From contig CP046106.1 in the NCBI GenBank assembly GCA_013343275.1, forward strand, positions 608,001 to 672,000: a stretch of 64,000 nucleotides of DNA. The letters run 5' to 3'. Both the position numbers and the translations under genes were made by a program. This document shows, in pieces, positions 57,540 through 64,000 of this stretch. Within the stretch, counting starts at the first letter, position 1; each line of letters starts with the position of its first letter. The notes beneath the pieces are model-generated. The model searched no databases, was not told the origin of the DNA, and saw only the letters and a list, made by a program, of their open reading frames with translations. The stretch comes from Candidatus Nanohaloarchaea archaeon. Lineage in GTDB: Archaea > Nanohalarchaeota > Nanosalinia > Nanosalinales > Nanosalinaceae.

Positions 57540-58622
57540 GTGTTCTATCTGAGCGCCAGTTCAGGCCCCGAATACCTCCCTGACGACTTCGATATCCCCG
57601 ATAACTACAACATTCTGCAGATTTCTGAAATACACGCATTCGAGGAGTTCAACGAGGCGGAAAGCGAGAACTACAGCCAGGAAGTAGCCCGCCAGGTCAA
57701 CAGCTACACCGAAAAATATGACGTCGACGAAATCCATGTAATGGGCGACACAGGAACCTTCGACGACGTATACAACTTCCTGGATACCCTGAACCCGGGG
57801 CCCGAAGTTGTAATCGTGGCTGGAGATGAAGACAAGAAAGACGCAAATCCAGGCCCAGGAGAAAAGTCAGACGAATTCACAGGATTCTACACCCAGATCA
57901 ACAGCCTACAGCCCTTCGATGTCGATGTAGACTACCAGATATTCGACGAAGGATTCGAAAAAGAAGTAGCGGGCAACAAAGTGCAGGCAGCACACCATCC
58001 GAGAAAATCCAAGAGAGAAAACTCTCTCAACCGGCCCGACCCAAGGCCTGACAGCTTCCTGGATGATCTTTTCTCCGTTGAGAAACACACAAACGAGAAA
58101 ACAGCAGAATGCATGATATACGAAGCTGAAAACAACAAAAAACATTTCCCGAAAAGCGGGCCTGATGAAGGAAACCCAGAATTGCGGGAAAACGACATGG
58201 TTAAAAGCCCTCCAAGCCTCAAAGGCCTTGACGTAGTTGTATACGACCACCTGCACATGCCATACGCAAGAACCGCTGGCAACACAGTTGTCATGGGTCT
58301 AGGCGGTCGTAAAAACAACCACGATCCTGGAACAGAGGCCTTACCTAGTGAAAGCATGCATCTTGCAAGCTTCGGGGATGAAAGAATTCATTCAATGCAT
58401 TTCGACGCAGGAAAGGACCGCATATTCGAGCACCAGGTTTTCGAGCAGTCAGAGACTGATGTCCAGATGTACGACGTGGAGATCCCTGAAGAGTTAAACT
58501 CTGAAGGCGGTTACAGGCCTGTACAGAAAAGATTTCGACGGGAAAAGATTCCTGAAGAGGCCTGGGAGTTTGAGGAAGACCTACCAGAGAAATGGACTGA
58601 AGAAGTCAGGCCTGCTGCCTGA
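57540..58622 (+). CDS. divergent metallophosphoesterase-like protein
   Basis: ISEIH, MGD, AGDED, AHH and DHLH in calcineurin-like motif order; start uncertain. Confidence 0.65.
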   Translation: MFYLSASSGPEYLPDDFDIPDNYNILQISEIHAFEEFNEAESENYSQEVARQVNSYTEKYDVDEIHVMGDTGTFDDVYNFLDTLNPGPEVVIVAGDEDKKDANPGPGEKSDEFTGFYTQINSLQPFDVDVDYQIFDEGFEKEVAGNKVQAAHHPRKSKRENSLNRPDPRPDSFLDDLFSVEKHTNEKTAECMIYEAENNKKHFPKSGPDEGNPELRENDMVKSPPSLKGLDVVVYDHLHMPYARTAGNTVVMGLGGRKNNHDPGTEALPSESMHLASFGDERIHSMHFDAGKDRIFEHQVFEQSETDVQMYDVEIPEELNSEGGYRPVQKRFRREKIPEEAWEFEEDLPEKWTEEVRPAA

Positions 58623-58662
58623 AAAAGTACAAAAATAGCGGCCTAACAGTTTTTTACATAGA

Positions 58663-59178
58663 ATGAGCAACTACTTCACCCAGTCTCCAGAACAACTGAA
58701 AGAATTTCTTGAATTTATAGAAGACGACATCGACAACGTGAGAAGGGTAATAGATACAGTTGAAGAAAAAGGCCTTGACGCAGATTTCATGGTTCATGCC
58801 AAGAGCGAGACTGTAGAGGAGTCAGCAGAAAACACAGATATTGACGAGAAAGAGATTGTCAAGACCCTGGTATTCATGGCCGATGAACCTGTGGCTGTGC
58901 TCTGCCCGGGCCATACATCAGTATCTGAAACAAAATTAGAGAGTATTCTAGAAGCAGAGATCAGGATGGCTTCGCCGGAAGAAGTTACAGAGGCCACAGG
59001 ATACTATGTCGGCGGAGTATCTCCTTTCGATCTTGATATACCTGTTTTGATGGAGGAATCGATTCTTGAACAGGAGAAAGTTAAGCCAGCGGCAGGATCG
59101 CGTGTAGTAGGAGTAACAATCAATACCGAAGATCTGAAAGAAGTTACCGGTGCAGAAGTAGTTGATGTATCGCGGTAA
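58663..59178 (+). CDS. YbaK/ProX family aminoacyl-tRNA deacylase
   Basis: IVKTLVF, TGYYVGGVSPF and AAG motifs. Confidence 0.92.
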   Translation: MSNYFTQSPEQLKEFLEFIEDDIDNVRRVIDTVEEKGLDADFMVHAKSETVEESAENTDIDEKEIVKTLVFMADEPVAVLCPGHTSVSETKLESILEAEIRMASPEEVTEATGYYVGGVSPFDLDIPVLMEESILEQEKVKPAAGSRVVGVTINTEDLKEVTGAEVVDVSR

Positions 59179-60120
59179 TCAGAAAACCTTCTCTCCTTCC
59201 ATTTCAGGCCTTTCGCCTTCAATCAGCTCCGATATATCATCACGGAAGAAAAACTCGTTGAGAACTTCCAGATCATCTGAATTCTCGGCCTTCCTGATCC
59301 CTTCATCTGATCCAAGAATATATCCCGGATCCTGGCTGTACTGAGGTGGTAGCGCGTACTCAGGATTTGACGAAAGCCGTTCTACATCAAGAACTTCGGA
59401 ACCGAAAACAAACTCCGGTTCATATACACTCCAGTCATTTCCAAGCTCATCTACAACGCTCTGCCAGGCCTTTCTCCAGCTAGATGTCTTCTTAACGAGC
59501 GAGCCTCCGCCACGATTATCAGCAGTATCCTGGGCATTAGACTGATCGAAACCTCTTCTTTCAGGCTCAGCGTCCAGAAGCTGGTGTTCTTCCATCTCTT
59601 CCTCTTCAATGAAGAAACGGGCTTCGGCCGGATACTCCTCCTCTATTTCGCTCCATTCTGCAGGATCAGGATCCGAGAACTCTCCACGGTTTTTTACATC
59701 TGTATAGCCTTCATGAGGTTTAACCTCTACCATGTGGGCCTCGTAACGATCCAGATCCAGGAAAAGAAGGTCGGCATCTCCCATCAAAGTTTCATGCTCG
59801 GAAGCTGACATATCTCCCGGGTTCTCATGGAAATCTCTCTCGGTAAGCACCAGATCCCATTTATTGCTGCCGCGATCGATATTTTCAGCGTAACGATCTA
59901 ATCGGCCGTCAACCAGCAGGTCGTGGCGATCCTGAGATTCCCGTGGATCAGAACGCAAAATACCTTCGACATAGGTACCTTCCTCTATCCTGACACCAGG
60001 CTGAGAAACTACTTCCGGAGTCCATGGACGGCCCTGACTAGCATTTTCAAGAACAACGGCGTGCGCATCCTCTGTAATATCATATCTATCTAATGCCTGC
60101 GCCGCATCAAGATCTCCCAT
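59179..60120 (-). CDS. hypothetical protein with PD-(D/E)xK nuclease-like motif
   Basis: GDADLLF...HMVEVK. Confidence 0.65.
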   Translation of the reverse strand: MGDLDAAQALDRYDITEDAHAVVLENASQGRPWTPEVVSQPGVRIEEGTYVEGILRSDPRESQDRHDLLVDGRLDRYAENIDRGSNKWDLVLTERDFHENPGDMSASEHETLMGDADLLFLDLDRYEAHMVEVKPHEGYTDVKNRGEFSDPDPAEWSEIEEEYPAEARFFIEEEEMEEHQLLDAEPERRGFDQSNAQDTADNRGGGSLVKKTSSWRKAWQSVVDELGNDWSVYEPEFVFGSEVLDVERLSSNPEYALPPQYSQDPGYILGSDEGIRKAENSDDLEVLNEFFFRDDISELIEGERPEMEGEKVF

Positions 60121-60158
60121 CTAAAGAAAAATCACACAGTACAAGATTAAAAATATTT

Positions 60159-60647
60159 CTACAGCTCCGACAGCACATCAGAACCTACCATATCTACAAA
60201 GTCCTCATAGGCCTCATCTCGGGCAAAATCCTGATGCTCAGGCCAGTAAACCGTGCCTGCAAGAAGAGAGTTTTCAGGCCTCTCCAACTCCCTGGTATTA
60301 TCGTAGGGAATCGTGGCCAACTCATAACCCCAGTCATTATCCAGTTCCTGAATTATACCGGAAACTTTACGGCCTTCAGAGAACTCTGCACCCGGATCAA
60401 AATCCGTGGAGGCCGGCGAAAAATCAACGTCGTAAATGCGGAGGTAACAGTTCTCCAGGTCAAAATTAGCCATATCTACCTTAACTCCGGGCCTCTTCCC
60501 GAGATCGAAACCCTCTACATCTTCGGTTTCAGCGTTATACTCTCCTCTAACCAGAATATCGAAAGGCCTGTCGCTACCAACTTCGCTCATCCTTTCACGG
60601 GTAATTCTATCCCAGAACAGCTCTTTATGAGAGATATCGTTCGACAC
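60159..60647 (-). CDS. hypothetical acidic protein
   Basis: Open acidic frame; GTG start. Confidence 0.65.
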   Translation of the reverse strand: MSNDISHKELFWDRITRERMSEVGSDRPFDILVRGEYNAETEDVEGFDLGKRPGVKVDMANFDLENCYLRIYDVDFSPASTDFDPGAEFSEGRKVSGIIQELDNDWGYELATIPYDNTRELERPENSLLAGTVYWPEHQDFARDEAYEDFVDMVGSDVLSEL

Positions 60648-60752
60648 AGAAAGTTAAATGACTGGCAAAATATTTACAGTAACGCCCTACTGTTGAGATT
60701 GACTGCAGCATTCAAAACCTCCGACAGTAAGAATTTAACAGTTAAGCACGAA

Positions 60753-60819
60753 GACTTCTCTGTTCCAATGAAAGGTGGACGCTTTTATCCACGAGAAGTT
60801 TGAAAACGCCGTAAAACCT
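60753..60819 (+). promoter_or_regulatory. tyrS leader element with uORF MKGGRFYPREV (60768-60803)
   Basis: Shares a 16-nt core and a downstream TAAAACCT with the serS leader; enclosed by an inverted repeat. Confidence 0.6.
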
Positions 60820-60874
60820 TCCAGCCACAGCTCTTTAAGCGTTCTCTCACAAATTCTTCGTAGGTAGATACTAA

Positions 60875-61900
60875 ATGGACAACGAGAAACGTAAAGAACT
60901 AGTTCTCCGTAACTCGGAGGAGATAATCCAGGAAGAAGAACTGGAACAGATACTTGAAGAAAAAGACGAGCCACGGGCCTACGTAGGATACGAGACCTCA
61001 GGGCCTGTACACCTCGGCCACTGGATCTCAGTCCGTAAAATGCTGGACATCCAGAAAGCAGGATTCGATCCCGTAATTCTGTGGGCAGATCTGCATACCT
61101 TCCTCAACAAGAAAGGAGAGGAGGACTGGATCGAGGACATGATCGAGTACTGGCAGGCCACATTCGAAGCTCTAGGCCTTGACGCAGAGTACGTCCACGG
61201 CCGGGACTTCCAGGAAGACGACGAGTACTTCCACGATTTATTGACCATGATGCAAAAAACCACGATCAACCGTGGAGAACGCTCAATGCAACACGATTTG
61301 AGGGACAAGGACGAAGTCTACATCTCCCAGATCACATACCCACTGATGCAGGCACTTGACATCGTCCACCTAGACCTTGATCTGGCAGTCGCTGGAATCG
61401 AGCAGAGAAAAATCCACATGCTCGCAAGAGAACAGCTGCCAAAACTCGGATACGAGAAACCAACCTGCCTGCACTGGCCTCTACTCACATCACTGGCCGG
61501 AAGCGGGGACAAAATGTCTTCATCCAAGAAAAACACGATGTTCCCACTGCACGCAGACCCAGAAGACATCAGGGACGTACTTGAAGACGCTTACTGCCCA
61601 CAGGGCGAAGTAGAAGACAACCCGATTATCCAGATCTGCCAGTTCTTCATCTTCGGAGCAGACCGCGAACTAACAGTCGAGAGAAAAGAAGAATACGGCG
61701 GAGACCTCCACTACGAAACATTTGAGGAGATGACAGAAGATTTCGAAAGCGGCGAACTCCACCCGCTGGACCTAAAAGAAGCAGTAGCAGACGAAGTAAT
61801 CGACAGATTCGAACCAGTAAGAGAAAGGTTCAAAGAAGAACCAGAACTACTGGAACCGCTCGAAGAGATAGGCCACGAAAAACCAGATTATCTGAAGTAA
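60875..61900 (+). CDS. tyrS: tyrosyl-tRNA synthetase (archaeal type)
   Basis: YVGYETSGPVHLGH, YPLMQALD, EQRKIHMLARE and KMSSS motifs. Confidence 0.97.
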   Translation: MDNEKRKELVLRNSEEIIQEEELEQILEEKDEPRAYVGYETSGPVHLGHWISVRKMLDIQKAGFDPVILWADLHTFLNKKGEEDWIEDMIEYWQATFEALGLDAEYVHGRDFQEDDEYFHDLLTMMQKTTINRGERSMQHDLRDKDEVYISQITYPLMQALDIVHLDLDLAVAGIEQRKIHMLAREQLPKLGYEKPTCLHWPLLTSLAGSGDKMSSSKKNTMFPLHADPEDIRDVLEDAYCPQGEVEDNPIIQICQFFIFGADRELTVERKEEYGGDLHYETFEEMTEDFESGELHPLDLKEAVADEVIDRFEPVRERFKEEPELLEPLEEIGHEKPDYLK

Positions 61901-61997
61901 AGGCCTTCTCTTCTTCTAACTTTTTCTTTTCTAGCTAGTTCCCCTTTGGCAGATAGAGTTACTGTATGTTGAAATGTAGAGAAGTAAAGTTGAGAGT

Positions 61998-62198
61998 TTA
62001 CTCCTCTTCTGGATCGTCTTCTTCTACCCAGACACGTACTTTTCCGGGCGGTGCGTCGAAAGGCCTTTTGCCAAACCTGATGTTCTCCGCGAGATCCATT
62101 GCTTCCTTTATCTTGTCGAATTCTTTTTCTGTTACTACTTTTTCCTTGAGTTCGGTGGGATGTGTTTCATCGAACTCGTATCCAGCTACTTCTTTCAT
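61998..62198 (-). CDS. small hypothetical protein
   Basis: ATG start, acidic, AT-rich box about 25 nt upstream. Confidence 0.6.
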   Translation of the reverse strand: MKEVAGYEFDETHPTELKEKVVTEKEFDKIKEAMDLAENIRFGKRPFDAPPGKVRVWVEEDDPEEE

Positions 62199-62280
62199 GT
62201 ATACCTATGGGACAGGCATCTTTATGATATCTCGACATCAACAGGATTGAACTAAAAAGAAACAAGTTACAATTTAAGGT

Positions 62281-62661
62281 GTGAAGATCACTATCTACGG
62301 CCGCACGCTCAACGTCTACGAGCAGTTGATCGATGAACCGCAGAAAGAAGTTAACGACCAGCTTAACGAATACTTCAACGGAGACCGGGAAATCTTTGAC
62401 CTTGAGTACGATATTCCTGAAGGATTTGTCGGCAGTGTTCTCCGCGAGATCCAGAAAATAGACTACGGGGAGACCAAGACCTATGGAGAAATTGCTGATA
62501 AAGTAGACAGCATTCCTATAGCTGTAGGTCAGGCCTGCAGCAAGAACCCTCTCCCTCTAATCGTTCCCTGCCACAGAGTAGTAGGTAAAAACTCTGTAGG
62601 AGGGTATCTTGGAGAAAGCGATAGTGAAGTGAAACGGAAACTGCTACAGCTAGAGAAATAA
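62281..62661 (+). CDS. ogt: methylated-DNA--protein-cysteine methyltransferase
   Basis: YGETKTYGEIA, AVGQAC and PCHRVV motifs. Confidence 0.94.
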   Translation: MKITIYGRTLNVYEQLIDEPQKEVNDQLNEYFNGDREIFDLEYDIPEGFVGSVLREIQKIDYGETKTYGEIADKVDSIPIAVGQACSKNPLPLIVPCHRVVGKNSVGGYLGESDSEVKRKLLQLEK

Positions 62662-62675
62662 GTTTTTAACTCTGC

Positions 62676-62828
62676 TTGCAGAATTTCTGGTTACAATGAA
62701 AGGTGGACGTCCCTCTGAAAATCGGAGATTTTCTGGAGTCAAAGGAAATCTGCGATTTCCAGACTTTTCTCACCGGACACATTTTGCAACCAACCAGGCT
62801 CGATGAGAGCCAGTTAGATCTAAAACCT
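62676..62828 (+). promoter_or_regulatory. serS leader element with 36-aa uORF MKGGRPSENRRFS... (62696-62806)
   Basis: Same core as the tyrS leader, a 54-nt in-frame insert, outer stems that differ from tyrS but still pair. Confidence 0.6.
62710..62763. repeat. double-hairpin palindromic element
   Basis: GAAAATC-GGA-GATTTTC and GGAAATC-TGC-GATTTCC. Confidence 0.65.
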
Positions 62829-62863
62829 ATTCTAGATAAAAATTTCTACGTAAGTGGTTACGT

Positions 62864-64000
62864 ATGATTGCTATAGAAGTCTTCCGCGATAATCCTGAGG
62901 AGATTAAAGACGCACAGAGACGTAGAGGAAAAGACCCTGAGAAAGTAGATAAAGTAGTTGAACTCGACAGAGAATGGAGAGAGAAACTGCAGGAGCTTGA
63001 ATCTCTTCAGCAGGAGAGAAACGAAGTAGGGGATAAGATCGCGGAGCTTAAACAGGAAGGAGAAGATGCCTCCGATAAAATTGAACGCATGCAGGAAGTA
63101 AAACAGAGAATCAGCGAGCTGGAGGACGAAGTCGACGATCTGAAAGAGGAACGTGACGAAGTCCGCTACCAGGTAGGCAACCTGCTAGCCGACGATGTTC
63201 CTGAAGGAGAGGGAGAGGAAGACAACCCAGAACTCCGGACATGGGAGCCGGAGGAAGGGATGAAAGAGGACTCAAAACTTGCTGCAGACTTCCTTGAAGA
63301 AAACGATCTTCTGTCAGCGGAGAAGGCCACAGAGGTAGGAGGAGAACGCGCATACTACCTATCACCGGAATTGCTACAGCTGAGCCAGGCCCTGATCAAC
63401 TTCTCGATCGACTTCCTGAAAGAGAAAGACTTTGGAGTCTATCAGGTGCCGTACATGCTGGAGGAGAAGTCGATCTCTGCAGCTGTAGATCTGGAAACAT
63501 TCGAAGACCAGCTCTACCAGGTAAACGAAAACGACAGATACCTGATAGGTACCGCAGAACATGCACTGGCCGCGAAATATCAGGGGGAAGTAATAGAACA
63601 AGACCTACCACTCAAACTTGGAGGATACTCCACAAACTTCCGGAGAGAGGCCGGTAAACACGGTAAACAGACCAGAGGTCTCTGGAGAGTCCACCAGTTC
63701 GAGAAAGTAGAGCAGTTCGCATTCTGCAAACCAGAAAACCACCTGGATATACTCCAGGAGACTCTTGGCAATGCAGAGGAGATCATGCAGGAGCTAGGTC
63801 TTCCATACCGAGTAGTCGATATCTGCGACGGCGACATCTCGAACAAGACCTTCAAGCAGTACGATATCGAGGTATGGAGGCCTCCTCTCGGAGAGTACGG
63901 AGAAGTTGGTAGCTACGGGTCATGTACCGATTACCAGGCCCGCGAGTTCGATACCAGATACCGTGAGCAAGGCGACAGAAAAGTTCCTTACACAGTCTAT
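62864..64000 (+). CDS. serS: seryl-tRNA synthetase (3' truncated by window end; absent from ORF track)
   Basis: Manual translation: MIAIEVFRDNPEEIK, coiled-coil arm, LIGTAEH, FRREAG..TRGLWRVHQFEKVEQF, YDIEVW, CTDYQAR. Confidence 0.96.
   Translation, partial: MIAIEVFRDNPEEIKDAQRRRGKDPEKVDKVVELDREWREKLQELESLQQERNEVGDKIAELKQEGEDASDKIERMQEVKQRISELEDEVDDLKEERDEVRYQVGNLLADDVPEGEGEEDNPELRTWEPEEGMKEDSKLAADFLEENDLLSAEKATEVGGERAYYLSPELLQLSQALINFSIDFLKEKDFGVYQVPYMLEEKSISAAVDLETFEDQLYQVNENDRYLIGTAEHALAAKYQGEVIEQDLPLKLGGYSTNFRREAGKHGKQTRGLWRVHQFEKVEQFAFCKPENHLDILQETLGNAEEIMQELGLPYRVVDICDGDISNKTFKQYDIEVWRPPLGEYGEVGSYGSCTDYQAREFDTRYREQGDRKVPYTVY

Follow-up and report, generated by a model that had tools for sequence, protein, structure and literature searches.

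A conserved leader element with a cognate codon at a putative +1 frameshift site upstream of nanohaloarchaeal aminoacyl-tRNA synthetase genes

Why do the genes for tyrosyl- and seryl-tRNA synthetase of a nanohaloarchaeon, tyrS and serS, follow one and the same short leader sequence, with a codon at a fixed position that specifies tyrosine in one leader and serine in the other? The two genes lie in a stretch of 64,000 nucleotides (nt) from Candidatus Nanohaloarchaea archaeon (contig CP046106.1, positions 608,001 to 672,000 of the forward strand), referred to here as the window and numbered from its first letter; the whole genome is a single contig of 915,886 bp. A first-pass annotation of the window had proposed that an upstream open reading frame (uORF) in each leader senses the cognate amino acid. 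How archaea match aminoacyl-tRNA synthetases (aaRS) and amino-acid supply to demand is largely unknown, and we know of no T-box or leader-peptide attenuator reported for the aaRS genes of archaea. From a comparison of these leaders with their counterparts elsewhere, we propose that they are probably amino-acid-specific translational sensors, which would act by programmed +1 frameshifting at a "hungry" codon. The element offers a sequence-defined candidate mechanism for 13 or more amino acids, and it is present in 51 of the phylum's 70 genomes.

The window contains two exact copies of the 16-mer CAATGAAAGGTGGACG (60766-60781 and 62694-62709, + strand), as the annotation had stated for the regions before tyrS and serS, and none of the 100 dinucleotide shuffles of the window contained two or more copies (0/100). 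What the annotation had stated about the sequence proved right throughout. The two leaders and their genes are composed of the following features.

60732..60739, + strand: TATA-like box AATTTAAC of the tyrS leader, read from the sequence, a putative promoter.
60768..60803, + strand: uORF of the tyrS leader in frame 0, MKGGRF-Y-PREV and stop, assigned from the sequence and from the ATG rule in relatives.
60773..60778, + strand: Shine-Dalgarno (SD)-like AGGTGG in the tyrS uORF, 4 nt (ACGC) before the slippery codon, assigned from cassette conservation in relatives.
60783..60788, + strand: proposed shift site TTT_TAT of the tyrS leader, with the Phe codon in the P site and the cognate Tyr codon in the A site.
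60787..60867, + strand: +1-frame open reading frame (ORF) of the tyrS leader, 26 codons, IHEKFENAVKPSSHSSLSVLSQILRR and stop, the stop lying 7 nt before the tyrS ATG.
60812..60819, + strand: 3' box TAAAACCT of the tyrS leader, Lys-Pro when read in the +1 frame.
60875..61900, + strand: tyrS, tyrosyl-tRNA synthetase, 341 amino acids, Pfam PF00579 (tRNA-synt_1b), 136 bits.
62663..62670, + strand: TATA-like box TTTTTAAC of the serS leader, read from the sequence and from the positional peak in relatives.
62696..62806, + strand: uORF of the serS leader in frame 0, 36 codons, MKGGRPSENRRFSGVKGNLRFPDFSHRTHFATNQAR and stop (MKGGRP-S-...).
62701..62706, + strand: SD-like AGGTGG of the serS leader, identical to the tyrS-leader motif.
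62710..62763, + strand: palindromic in-frame insert of 54 nt in the serS leader, resembling repetitive extragenic palindromes or miniature inverted-repeat transposable elements (REP/MITE-like); the +1 frame stays open.
62711..62716, + strand: proposed shift site CCC_TCT of the serS leader, with CCC from the hairpin insert in place of TTT.
62715..62867, + strand: +1-frame ORF of the serS leader, 50 codons; its TGA (62865-62867) overlaps the serS ATG (62864-62866) as ATGA.
62765..62770, + strand: ancestral-type TTT_TCT in frame 0, behind the serS insert; serS can be reached from this site in an open +1 frame as well.
62821..62828, + strand: 3' box TAAAACCT of the serS leader.
62864..64000, + strand: serS, seryl-tRNA synthetase, running past the window end (whole ORF 420 amino acids), Pfam PF02403 (Seryl_tRNA_N) and PF00587 (tRNA-synt_2b).

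The sensor position is the same in both leaders. Codon 7 of the uORF is TAT in the tyrS leader (60786-60788) and TCT in the serS leader (62714-62716), and the Pfam identities of the downstream genes confirm the claimed match between codon 7 and synthetase. The 54-nt palindrome that had been noted in the serS copy was also found, with a predicted hairpin of -22.4 kcal/mol at 62710-62763. Despite this insert the Ser codon is still codon 7 and its spacing from AGGTGG is unchanged, and the serS leader of a same-genus relative (L040) reads GGACGCTTT-TCT without the insert. The TTAA-type boxes described upstream of both uORFs are likewise present, the 3' ends of AATTTAAC and TTTTTAAC lying 26-29 nt upstream of the two ATGs. 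From its position, the tyrS-leader box would set the transcript start at or beside the uORF ATG, which would make the uORF leaderless.

The annotation had cautioned that only two copies and a single diagnostic base were at hand, a caveat that the remaining genome and its relatives have lifted. Relatives were searched with a 15-mer at <=1 mismatch. Since the triplet that follows, NNN, lies outside the search pattern, the test of whether it is cognate to the downstream gene is unbiased. The 15-mer was found in 30 of the 41 genomes of the order, with about 116 copies among the matches listed versus 20 for a reversed control; every match was fetched, which gave 109 non-redundant copies from 40 relatives. 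Sixty of the 109 precede an ORF that matches an aaRS best when compared by BLAST with the full set of long ORFs from this genome. By this label NNN was cognate to the downstream aaRS in 59/60 copies, and the 60th, AAG before an "AspRS-like" ORF, precedes a class II LysRS according to NCBIfam, which brings the agreement to 60/60. Permutation of the labels gave 10.4 matches on average and 21 at most. Biosynthetic genes are found behind the element as well. TGG copies precede trpB in two genomes (L033, L085; TIGR00263, 573 and 570 bits, above the cut-off) and also a trpD-like ORF, the latter scoring under the cut-off of that family; ATC and ATT copies precede ilvA, and a TTC copy precedes pheS. 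This is the search that the first-pass annotation had called for, and it placed the motif before aaRS or amino-acid genes, with a codon that covaries with the target, the reverse of what had been named as speaking against the idea. The core of that idea, a translated uORF in which a codon at a fixed position tracks the synthetase and senses the amino acid, is strongly supported by these comparative data.

The exact motif AARGGTGGAYGYTTT was found in 51 of the 70 genomes of the phylum, with 159 matches summed versus 3 for the control. A scan of one genome per species (185,579 species) returned 54 stretches with the motif, 4 of them in bacteria, the number expected by our own estimate of chance being about 9; when the 54 loci were classified by record label, nearly all records bore the name Nanohaloarchaea or related names. 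Copies without an in-frame ATG that are probably due to chance or are remnants include L018 (with TGA), L021, L073, L087 and the copy at 550427 of this genome.

How far does the element extend within this genome? Its consensus is AAR-GGU-GGA-YGY-UUU-NNN, of which the shared 16-mer is the core, and it precedes 9 of the 19 aaRS genes located, when trpS is counted as the third gene behind its element; pheT was not located among the aaRS genes of this genome. The sensor triplets are Tyr TAT, Ser TCT, Thr ACC, Gly GGA, Cys TGT, Val GTA, Pro CCA, His CAT and Trp TGG, the gene identities here and in the relatives having been taken from NCBIfam and Pfam. Two TGG copies stand at the head of a gene string composed of a GNAT gene, an M20 peptidase gene and trpS. 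The copies before other aaRS genes are as follows.

thrS: core AAAGGTGGAYGYTTT followed by ACC, about 100-200 nt upstream.
glyS: core AAAGGTGGAYGYTTT followed by GGA, about 100-200 nt upstream.
cysS: core AAAGGTGGAYGYTTT followed by TGT, about 100-200 nt upstream.
valS: core AAAGGTGGAYGYTTT followed by GTA, about 100-200 nt upstream.
Bacterial-type proS: variant core GGATATGTT-CCA upstream.
hisS: variant core AGGTGACTATGAT-CAT upstream.

No motif was found within 400 nt upstream of metS, gluS, argS, alaS, leuS, ileS, aspS, lysS, pheS and the archaeal-type proS, which agrees with the earlier remark that leuS and alaS lack the element, and a frame-based search for degenerate units detected none before the met, glu, arg, ala, ile, leu, asp, pheS and archaeal-type proS genes. 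A weak candidate was seen upstream of the class I lysS (L013, genome positions ~369199-369259). It reads GGATGCTT-AAA, taken as ATG-CTT-AAA (CUU_A), and its +1 frame runs through 24 open codons before overlapping lysS as ATGA; this candidate is without a clear SD-like element or TATA box. A 14-mer with 2 mismatches gave 7 matches in the genome itself versus 10 for the reversed control, which is not above the control. Thus, the signal lies in the location of the copies and in the triplet that follows them.

The leader comparison points to translation of the uORF in frame 0. In 103 of the 109 copies the motif is preceded by an ATG that shares the frame of NNN and is not separated from it by a stop, compared with 5/109 for each of the other frames. 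This ATG stands immediately before the motif in 46 copies and three codons upstream in 20, the sensor codon is mostly 7-9 codons from the 5' end, and the frame-0 stop follows 3-26 codons past NNN. A TATA-like pentamer starts 38-26 nt upstream of the uORF ATG in 76/103 copies, with a peak at -32 to -27, and this position fits a leaderless uORF. To see what is conserved within the uORF, the pattern ATGAARGGNGGNYGNTTY, in which all synonymous Gly, Arg/Cys and Phe codons are allowed, was used; it gave 47 matches in 41 genomes. Among these the codons were GGT in 47/47, GGA in 46/47 and TTT in 47/47, and the third codon was YGY only, so that Arg and Cys alternate. TTT is the less used Phe codon here (25%), and the genome has a single tRNA-Phe(GAA). 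An arrest peptide MKGGRF, conserved at the peptide level, was rejected because the synonymous positions are frozen and Arg and Cys alternate. What is conserved is not the MKGGRF peptide that had been read from both copies, but the nucleotides that encode it. The idea that the sensor codons are rare codons was rejected too, because Gly and Val are encoded most often by GGA and GTA, respectively.

A second reading frame of the leaders is also constrained, namely the +1 frame that begins one base into NNN. It was followed in 64 leaders, 59 from relatives and 5 from this genome, L084 being left out because of a run of N. The +1 frame stops between -12 and +25 nt of the aaRS start in 61/64 leaders. 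A stop in this interval was found in 0/64 leaders for frame 0, in 6/64 for the +2 frame, and in 24% of shuffled leaders. The commonest ending, in 21/64, is a TGA that overlaps the aaRS start as ATGA, and in this genome such overlaps are reached at serS, hisS and proS after 50, 47 and 35 open codons, respectively. The +1 frame stays open even in leaders with inserts of ~50 nt. Units before other genes show different endings. Direct +1 fusions to downstream ORFs were found with GNAT, trpD-like, aminotransferase and other ORFs (several Trp units), the +1 ORFs of the first Trp elements end in ..ISS(I/V)KNFSW.., which includes a second Trp codon, and those of Ile, Leu and Val units end in cognate-type runs before the stop, such as IILLIILIL, VALLLLVLLL and IISIIAIIG. 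Judged by these endings, the +1 frame is conserved in the manner of a coding frame. The genomes compared establish that the element has a fixed cassette, a codon cognate to its target, an ATG in frame 0, frozen synonymous sites and a +1 frame that remains open.

What could bring a ribosome from frame 0 into the +1 frame? The order within the cassette is AGGUGG, a 4-nt spacer, UUU and the cognate codon. The 3' end of the 16S rRNA is ...GGAUCACCUCC(A), and AGGTG and GGTGA are enriched upstream of ORF starts (49 and 45 of 596 versus ~7 expected); AGGUGG is thus a plausible internal SD element. A slippery codon occupies the position of the P site, as UUU_N in 47/47 pattern matches and as CCC_U in serS here. 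Together with the short frame-0 ORF, the SD-like stimulator, the reporter codon in the A site and the linked open +1 frame, the leaders contain the parts that characterize a prfB-type site.

In the mechanism that we propose, a transcript starting at or beside the uORF ATG would be translated in frame 0, and the ribosome would meet the SD-like AGGUGG, the 4-nt spacer, the slippery UUU in the P site (CCC in serS here) and the cognate codon in the A site. When the cognate aminoacyl-tRNA is plentiful, the codon would be read and the ribosome would stop a few codons later, far from the gene. When it is scarce, the A site would remain empty and peptidyl-tRNA-Phe would slip +1 to UUN, aided by the SD/anti-SD helix as in bacterial prfB, and the ribosome would then continue in the +1 frame, in which no stop interrupts the leader. 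In aaRS units the +1 frame would end at or over the start codon, often as ATGA, and termination-reinitiation or translational coupling would lead to more synthetase. In some Trp units the +1 frame would be the downstream protein itself, a prfB-like fusion, and in other Trp units as well as in the Ile, Leu and Val units the ribosome would meet further cognate codons only once it had shifted into the +1 frame. We infer that frameshifting occurs in these leaders, that starvation raises it and that it raises downstream expression. This model is favoured over the rivals weighed below because it is the only one that uses all of the conserved features. We lean, by a smaller degree, towards its extension to a phylum-wide codon-programmable regulon, in which the charging of each tRNA would be sensed separately and the matching synthetase, biosynthesis and salvage genes would be switched on.

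Related mechanisms are known from other organisms, and are described here from excerpts of two articles (PMC5009743, PMC8211752). The shift site of the release factor 2 gene (prfB) is CUU_U, or UUU_U in a minority of species, with an SD stimulator on its 5' side, and slow decoding in the A site is the sensor; CCC_U-type sites are documented as +1 shift sites (PMC5009743). In the ermC leader ORF, ketolide-induced frameshifting carries ribosomes into the spacer and activates downstream initiation, and in antizyme the efficiency of frameshifting is both sensor and effector of a homeostatic loop (PMC5009743). Limitation of aminoacyl-tRNA with a vacant A site promotes slippage in the P site (PMC8211752). 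For Archaea, the excerpt of the latter article, a review of 2021, mentions a single reported case of programmed -1 frameshifting, a +1 event suggested for a haloarchaeal virus only, and a magnesium chelatase gene of a methanogen in which a frameshift is presumed (PMC8211752). In full-text literature searches, whose hits were mostly represented by the openings of their abstracts, no published description of leaders of the present kind was found. To our knowledge, shifting at hungry codons has mostly been treated as an error or as an experimental effect and not as a conserved regulon.

The present leaders resemble prfB in the short frame-0 ORF, the SD-like stimulator a few nt 5' of the slippery codon and the slow A-site codon that reports the factor, and also in that the +1 frame carries a useful outcome, which in some Trp units here is a direct +1 fusion. 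They differ from prfB in that the sensor is a sense codon, exchangeable over at least 13 amino acids, and not UGA, in that the organism is an archaeon, and in the spacer, which is 4 nt here, whereas in prfB it is 3 nt. In addition, the +1 ORF of aaRS units is not the product and terminates at the regulated gene's start codon, suggesting coupling, and the frameshift here is proposed from the sequence. As in the ermC leader, frameshifting in the leader ORF would open a new frame into the spacer and activate the downstream gene (PMC5009743). In ermC, however, an antibiotic is the trigger and the RNA is unfolded, whereas a hungry cognate codon is proposed here, no sequestering structure was found in the leaders folded, and the start codon is precisely where the new frame stops. 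The modular leader with its single exchangeable codon, located before many aaRS and biosynthesis genes (trpB, ilvA), is reminiscent of the T-box regulon of Gram-positive bacteria; the T-box is a large structured RNA that binds tRNA without translation of the specifier, whereas here the codon would be read in frame by the ribosome. The attenuators of trp, his, ilv and pheST have translated leaders with cognate codons, to which the runs in the Ile, Leu and Val units correspond. Unlike them, aaRS units have a single codon, placed at a slippery site. In the leaders folded, no pair of terminator and antiterminator was detected, and the runs are in the +1 frame. The frameshift would be sensor and effector at once, as the excerpt consulted states for antizyme, which, unlike the present element, senses polyamines at a stop codon. 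We propose that the element is a variant of regulatory +1 frameshifting combined with a regulon logic like that of the T-box.

Several observations weigh against the frameshift model. The copies from related genomes are largely orthologous and their counts overstate independence, although they still come from at least 24 genera and 13 amino-acid types. In 3/64 leaders the +1 frame stops 34-166 nt beyond the assigned aaRS start, and the +1 ORFs of the first Trp elements and of the Ile units end ~60-150 nt before any recognised start. Some variants have poor slippery codons, namely GAU_CAU in hisS (non-slippery), GUU_CCA in proS and GUU_CUG in the Leu units (weak). The motif contains a GUG in the +1 frame (A-AAG-GUG-GAC), at which ribosomes might enter by initiation instead of slippage. 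An SD-like 4-mer of their own was found at 30/59 aaRS starts, and a TATA-like box at -30 in 24/59; basal independent expression of the aaRS genes is likely, and their coupling to the leader may not be obligatory. Folding of the leaders did not exceed that of shuffles (z = +0.46, -0.16, +0.58), and among the leaders folded no consistent structure was detected that would mask the aaRS start or hide the ribosome-binding site in a hairpin.

Could the leaders work without any frameshift? A ribosome that pauses at the frame-0 cognate codon may by itself decide what becomes of the mRNA: it could prevent termination, for example by blocking a termination factor, shield the 5' end from decay or remodel the RNA. 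A cognate codon and an in-frame ATG are equally expected in this case, a ribosome stalled at a sensor 7-9 codons from the 5' end would cover that end, and the Ile, Leu and Val units contain cognate-codon runs of the classical kind. These runs and the second Trp codon are, however, in the +1 frame and not in frame 0. Pausing alone also leaves unexplained the +1 frame that is open to the aaRS start (61/64 versus 24% of shuffles), the use of TTT in 47/47 matches against the TTC preference of the genome and the fixed spacing of AGGTGG, and the leaders folded show none of the structure of a terminator/antiterminator, having no excess folding energy and 3' segments that are weakly and inconsistently structured, archaeal termination signals not having been modelled. 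It is therefore rather unlikely that pausing is the whole mechanism. The annotation had favoured stalling or tRNA sensing at the cognate codon; the sensing by a cognate codon is upheld, whereas an attenuator based on stalling or a terminator, or recognition of tRNA by the RNA, is probably wrong because the +1 frame is open in 61/64 leaders. Slippage would also be dispensable if two overlapping ORFs were initiated separately, the frame-0 ORF at the ATG and the +1 ORF at the GUG in GGUGGA, with competition or occlusion between them. In all copies the GUG lies in the +1 frame, and ORF finders start the fused proteins at this GTG, as VDVFG... Against this, ribosomes stalled at the sensor would sit on the GUG, so that starvation would reduce translation in the +1 frame, the opposite of what synthetase and biosynthesis genes require, and there would be no role for the fixed UUU or for the exact junction position of the cognate codon. 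Moreover, the GUG would be internal where the ATG is 5-17 codons upstream, and no SD-like sequence was seen before it by eye, a systematic search not having been made. Such dual initiation is improbable on this evidence.

Translation would be irrelevant if the leader were a T-box-like riboswitch that binds uncharged tRNA through the displayed codon. The agreement of codon and gene is like that of a T-box specifier, the regulon has the same make-up (aaRS, trpB, ilvA), and a covarying hairpin follows the codon in Gly leaders. This 3' hairpin is present in Gly leaders only, however, and the leaders are no more structured than shuffles. An Rfam cmscan of 58000-64000 at E <=10 gave three weak unrelated matches only and no T-box (RF00230), and a covarying element of the UGGN/NCCA type was not seen in the leaders, in which GGUGGA does not vary. 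An RNA acting independently of translation needs neither the in-frame ATG of 103/109 copies nor the conserved open +1 frame, and we consider a riboswitch of this kind highly improbable. It is barely conceivable that the element is a site in the DNA, such as a binding site for a transcription factor or a promoter element of translation-related genes, with an incidental codon match: the nucleotides and not the peptide are conserved and TATA-like boxes flank the leaders, but a DNA site cannot account for the cognate triplet in 60/60 copies, for an ATG in one frame or for the absence of stops in one frame.

If the frameshift model is correct, the element would be the first programmed +1 frameshift of cellular Archaea and the first aminoacyl-tRNA sensor based on frameshifting, and it would be the archaeal functional counterpart of the bacterial T-box regulon. 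In the branched-chain and Trp units, the cognate codons that follow in the +1 frame would then form a second stage and act as an AND-gate or an amplifier. Nanohaloarchaea depend on hosts for amino acids, and organisms with very small genomes (916 kb here) would need to gauge the supply of each amino acid. The principle of prfB, used as a general modular sensor, would be attractive for synthetic biology. The leaders and the +1-fused genes are probably misannotated at present, being called from an internal GTG or missed, and the model gives sharp predictions for Ribo-seq, proteomics and reporter assays.

Structure was evident in one class of leaders. In Gly leaders a hairpin begins at or inside the GGA sensor codon, with compensatory changes between genera and z < -1 in 12/13; in this genome it is located at 583463-583490 (L004). 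A 3' stimulatory hairpin as a general feature was rejected because the hairpin is confined to Gly leaders and was not found in the other classes. The 3' box TAAAACCT, described earlier as shared by both leaders after the uORF stops, is indeed present at 60812 and 62821. As an 8-mer it has 3 matches in the window, and 23/100 shuffles have at least 3, so that its recurrence in the window is not above chance. In relatives the 3' box (AAAACCU) recurs in many leaders, where the +1 peptides carry ..KPS.. or ..KPV... The two segments of the suggested pairing between AGGT on the 5' side and ACCT in the 3' box exist, but RNAfold gives the pairing in single leaders only, inconsistently. Neither the AGGU/ACCU pairing nor a masking of the aaRS SD sequence by the AAACCU box is supported.

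Other units of this genome differ in architecture. Of the two ProRS genes (L009; 240087-241313 and 242170-243648), the short bacterial-type one (family II-like, 408 amino acids) has the leader with the CCA sensor, whereas the archaeal-type one (family I, 492 amino acids) has none. The Trp locus (L010; 581377-578135, - strand) consists of two tandem units. The +1 ORF of the first has 25 codons and ends ~146 nt before the next uORF; the second is a +1 fusion to a GNAT-like ORF of 242 amino acids that overlaps the M20 peptidase gene by 4 nt, and trpS follows the latter after a 16-nt gap containing GGAGG. Two cassettes, Ile ATT and Leu CTA, are combined in the uORF MSKAITGGRF-I-EGQLEKGGRV-L-QTK (L015; 250709-250401, - strand). 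Its +1 frame ends in ISIILLIILIL and is followed by an SD sequence and a small ORF (MTLQHIITT...) that overlaps the start of a 393-amino-acid ORF with no Pfam match. Homologues of this ORF are located behind Ile sensors in relatives, and a paralogue behind a Phe sensor. Val and Leu cassettes are combined in the uORF MNADTTSGGCF-V-PKGGCV-L-LR (L016; 672934-672190, - strand), which is just past the window end and convergent with serS; its +1 frame ends in VALLLLVLLL, and a small ORF, MKQLQHNSMVFNHLKSVEKTGGRY, follows, whose TGA overlaps the ATG of a 172-amino-acid ORF.

Small palindromic inserts were also observed inside the leaders L036, L040, L044 and L082, where they do not close the +1 frame. 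Pieces of the serS insert of 18-22 nt are present at ~10 other sites in the genome, and a different insert of ~50 nt (CCCGAAACTTCTG...) is recurrent in Gly and Ser leaders of relatives. The interval between tyrS and the serS leader contains an ORF of 126 amino acids (62281-62661, + strand) with a 6-O-methylguanine DNA methyltransferase DNA-binding domain and an ORF of 66 amino acids (61998-62198, - strand) with no Pfam match. Two copies break the cognate rule. The copy at 550427 (L007, - strand) reads AAAGGTGGACGGTTT-AAA, has no in-frame ATG and a +1 ORF of just 2 codons, and lies 44 nt before an ORF that by eye resembles a glycosyltransferase; the other (L113, in a relative) reads CAAGGTGGATGTTTT-AAA and precedes an endonuclease V gene. 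Three contigs of a metagenome-assembled genome labelled Colwellia polaris (L141, L156, L162) bear the nanohaloarchaeal motif. This label looks wrong, and two contigs so labelled (28,698 and 10,630 bp) are equal in size to contigs of the relative G020.

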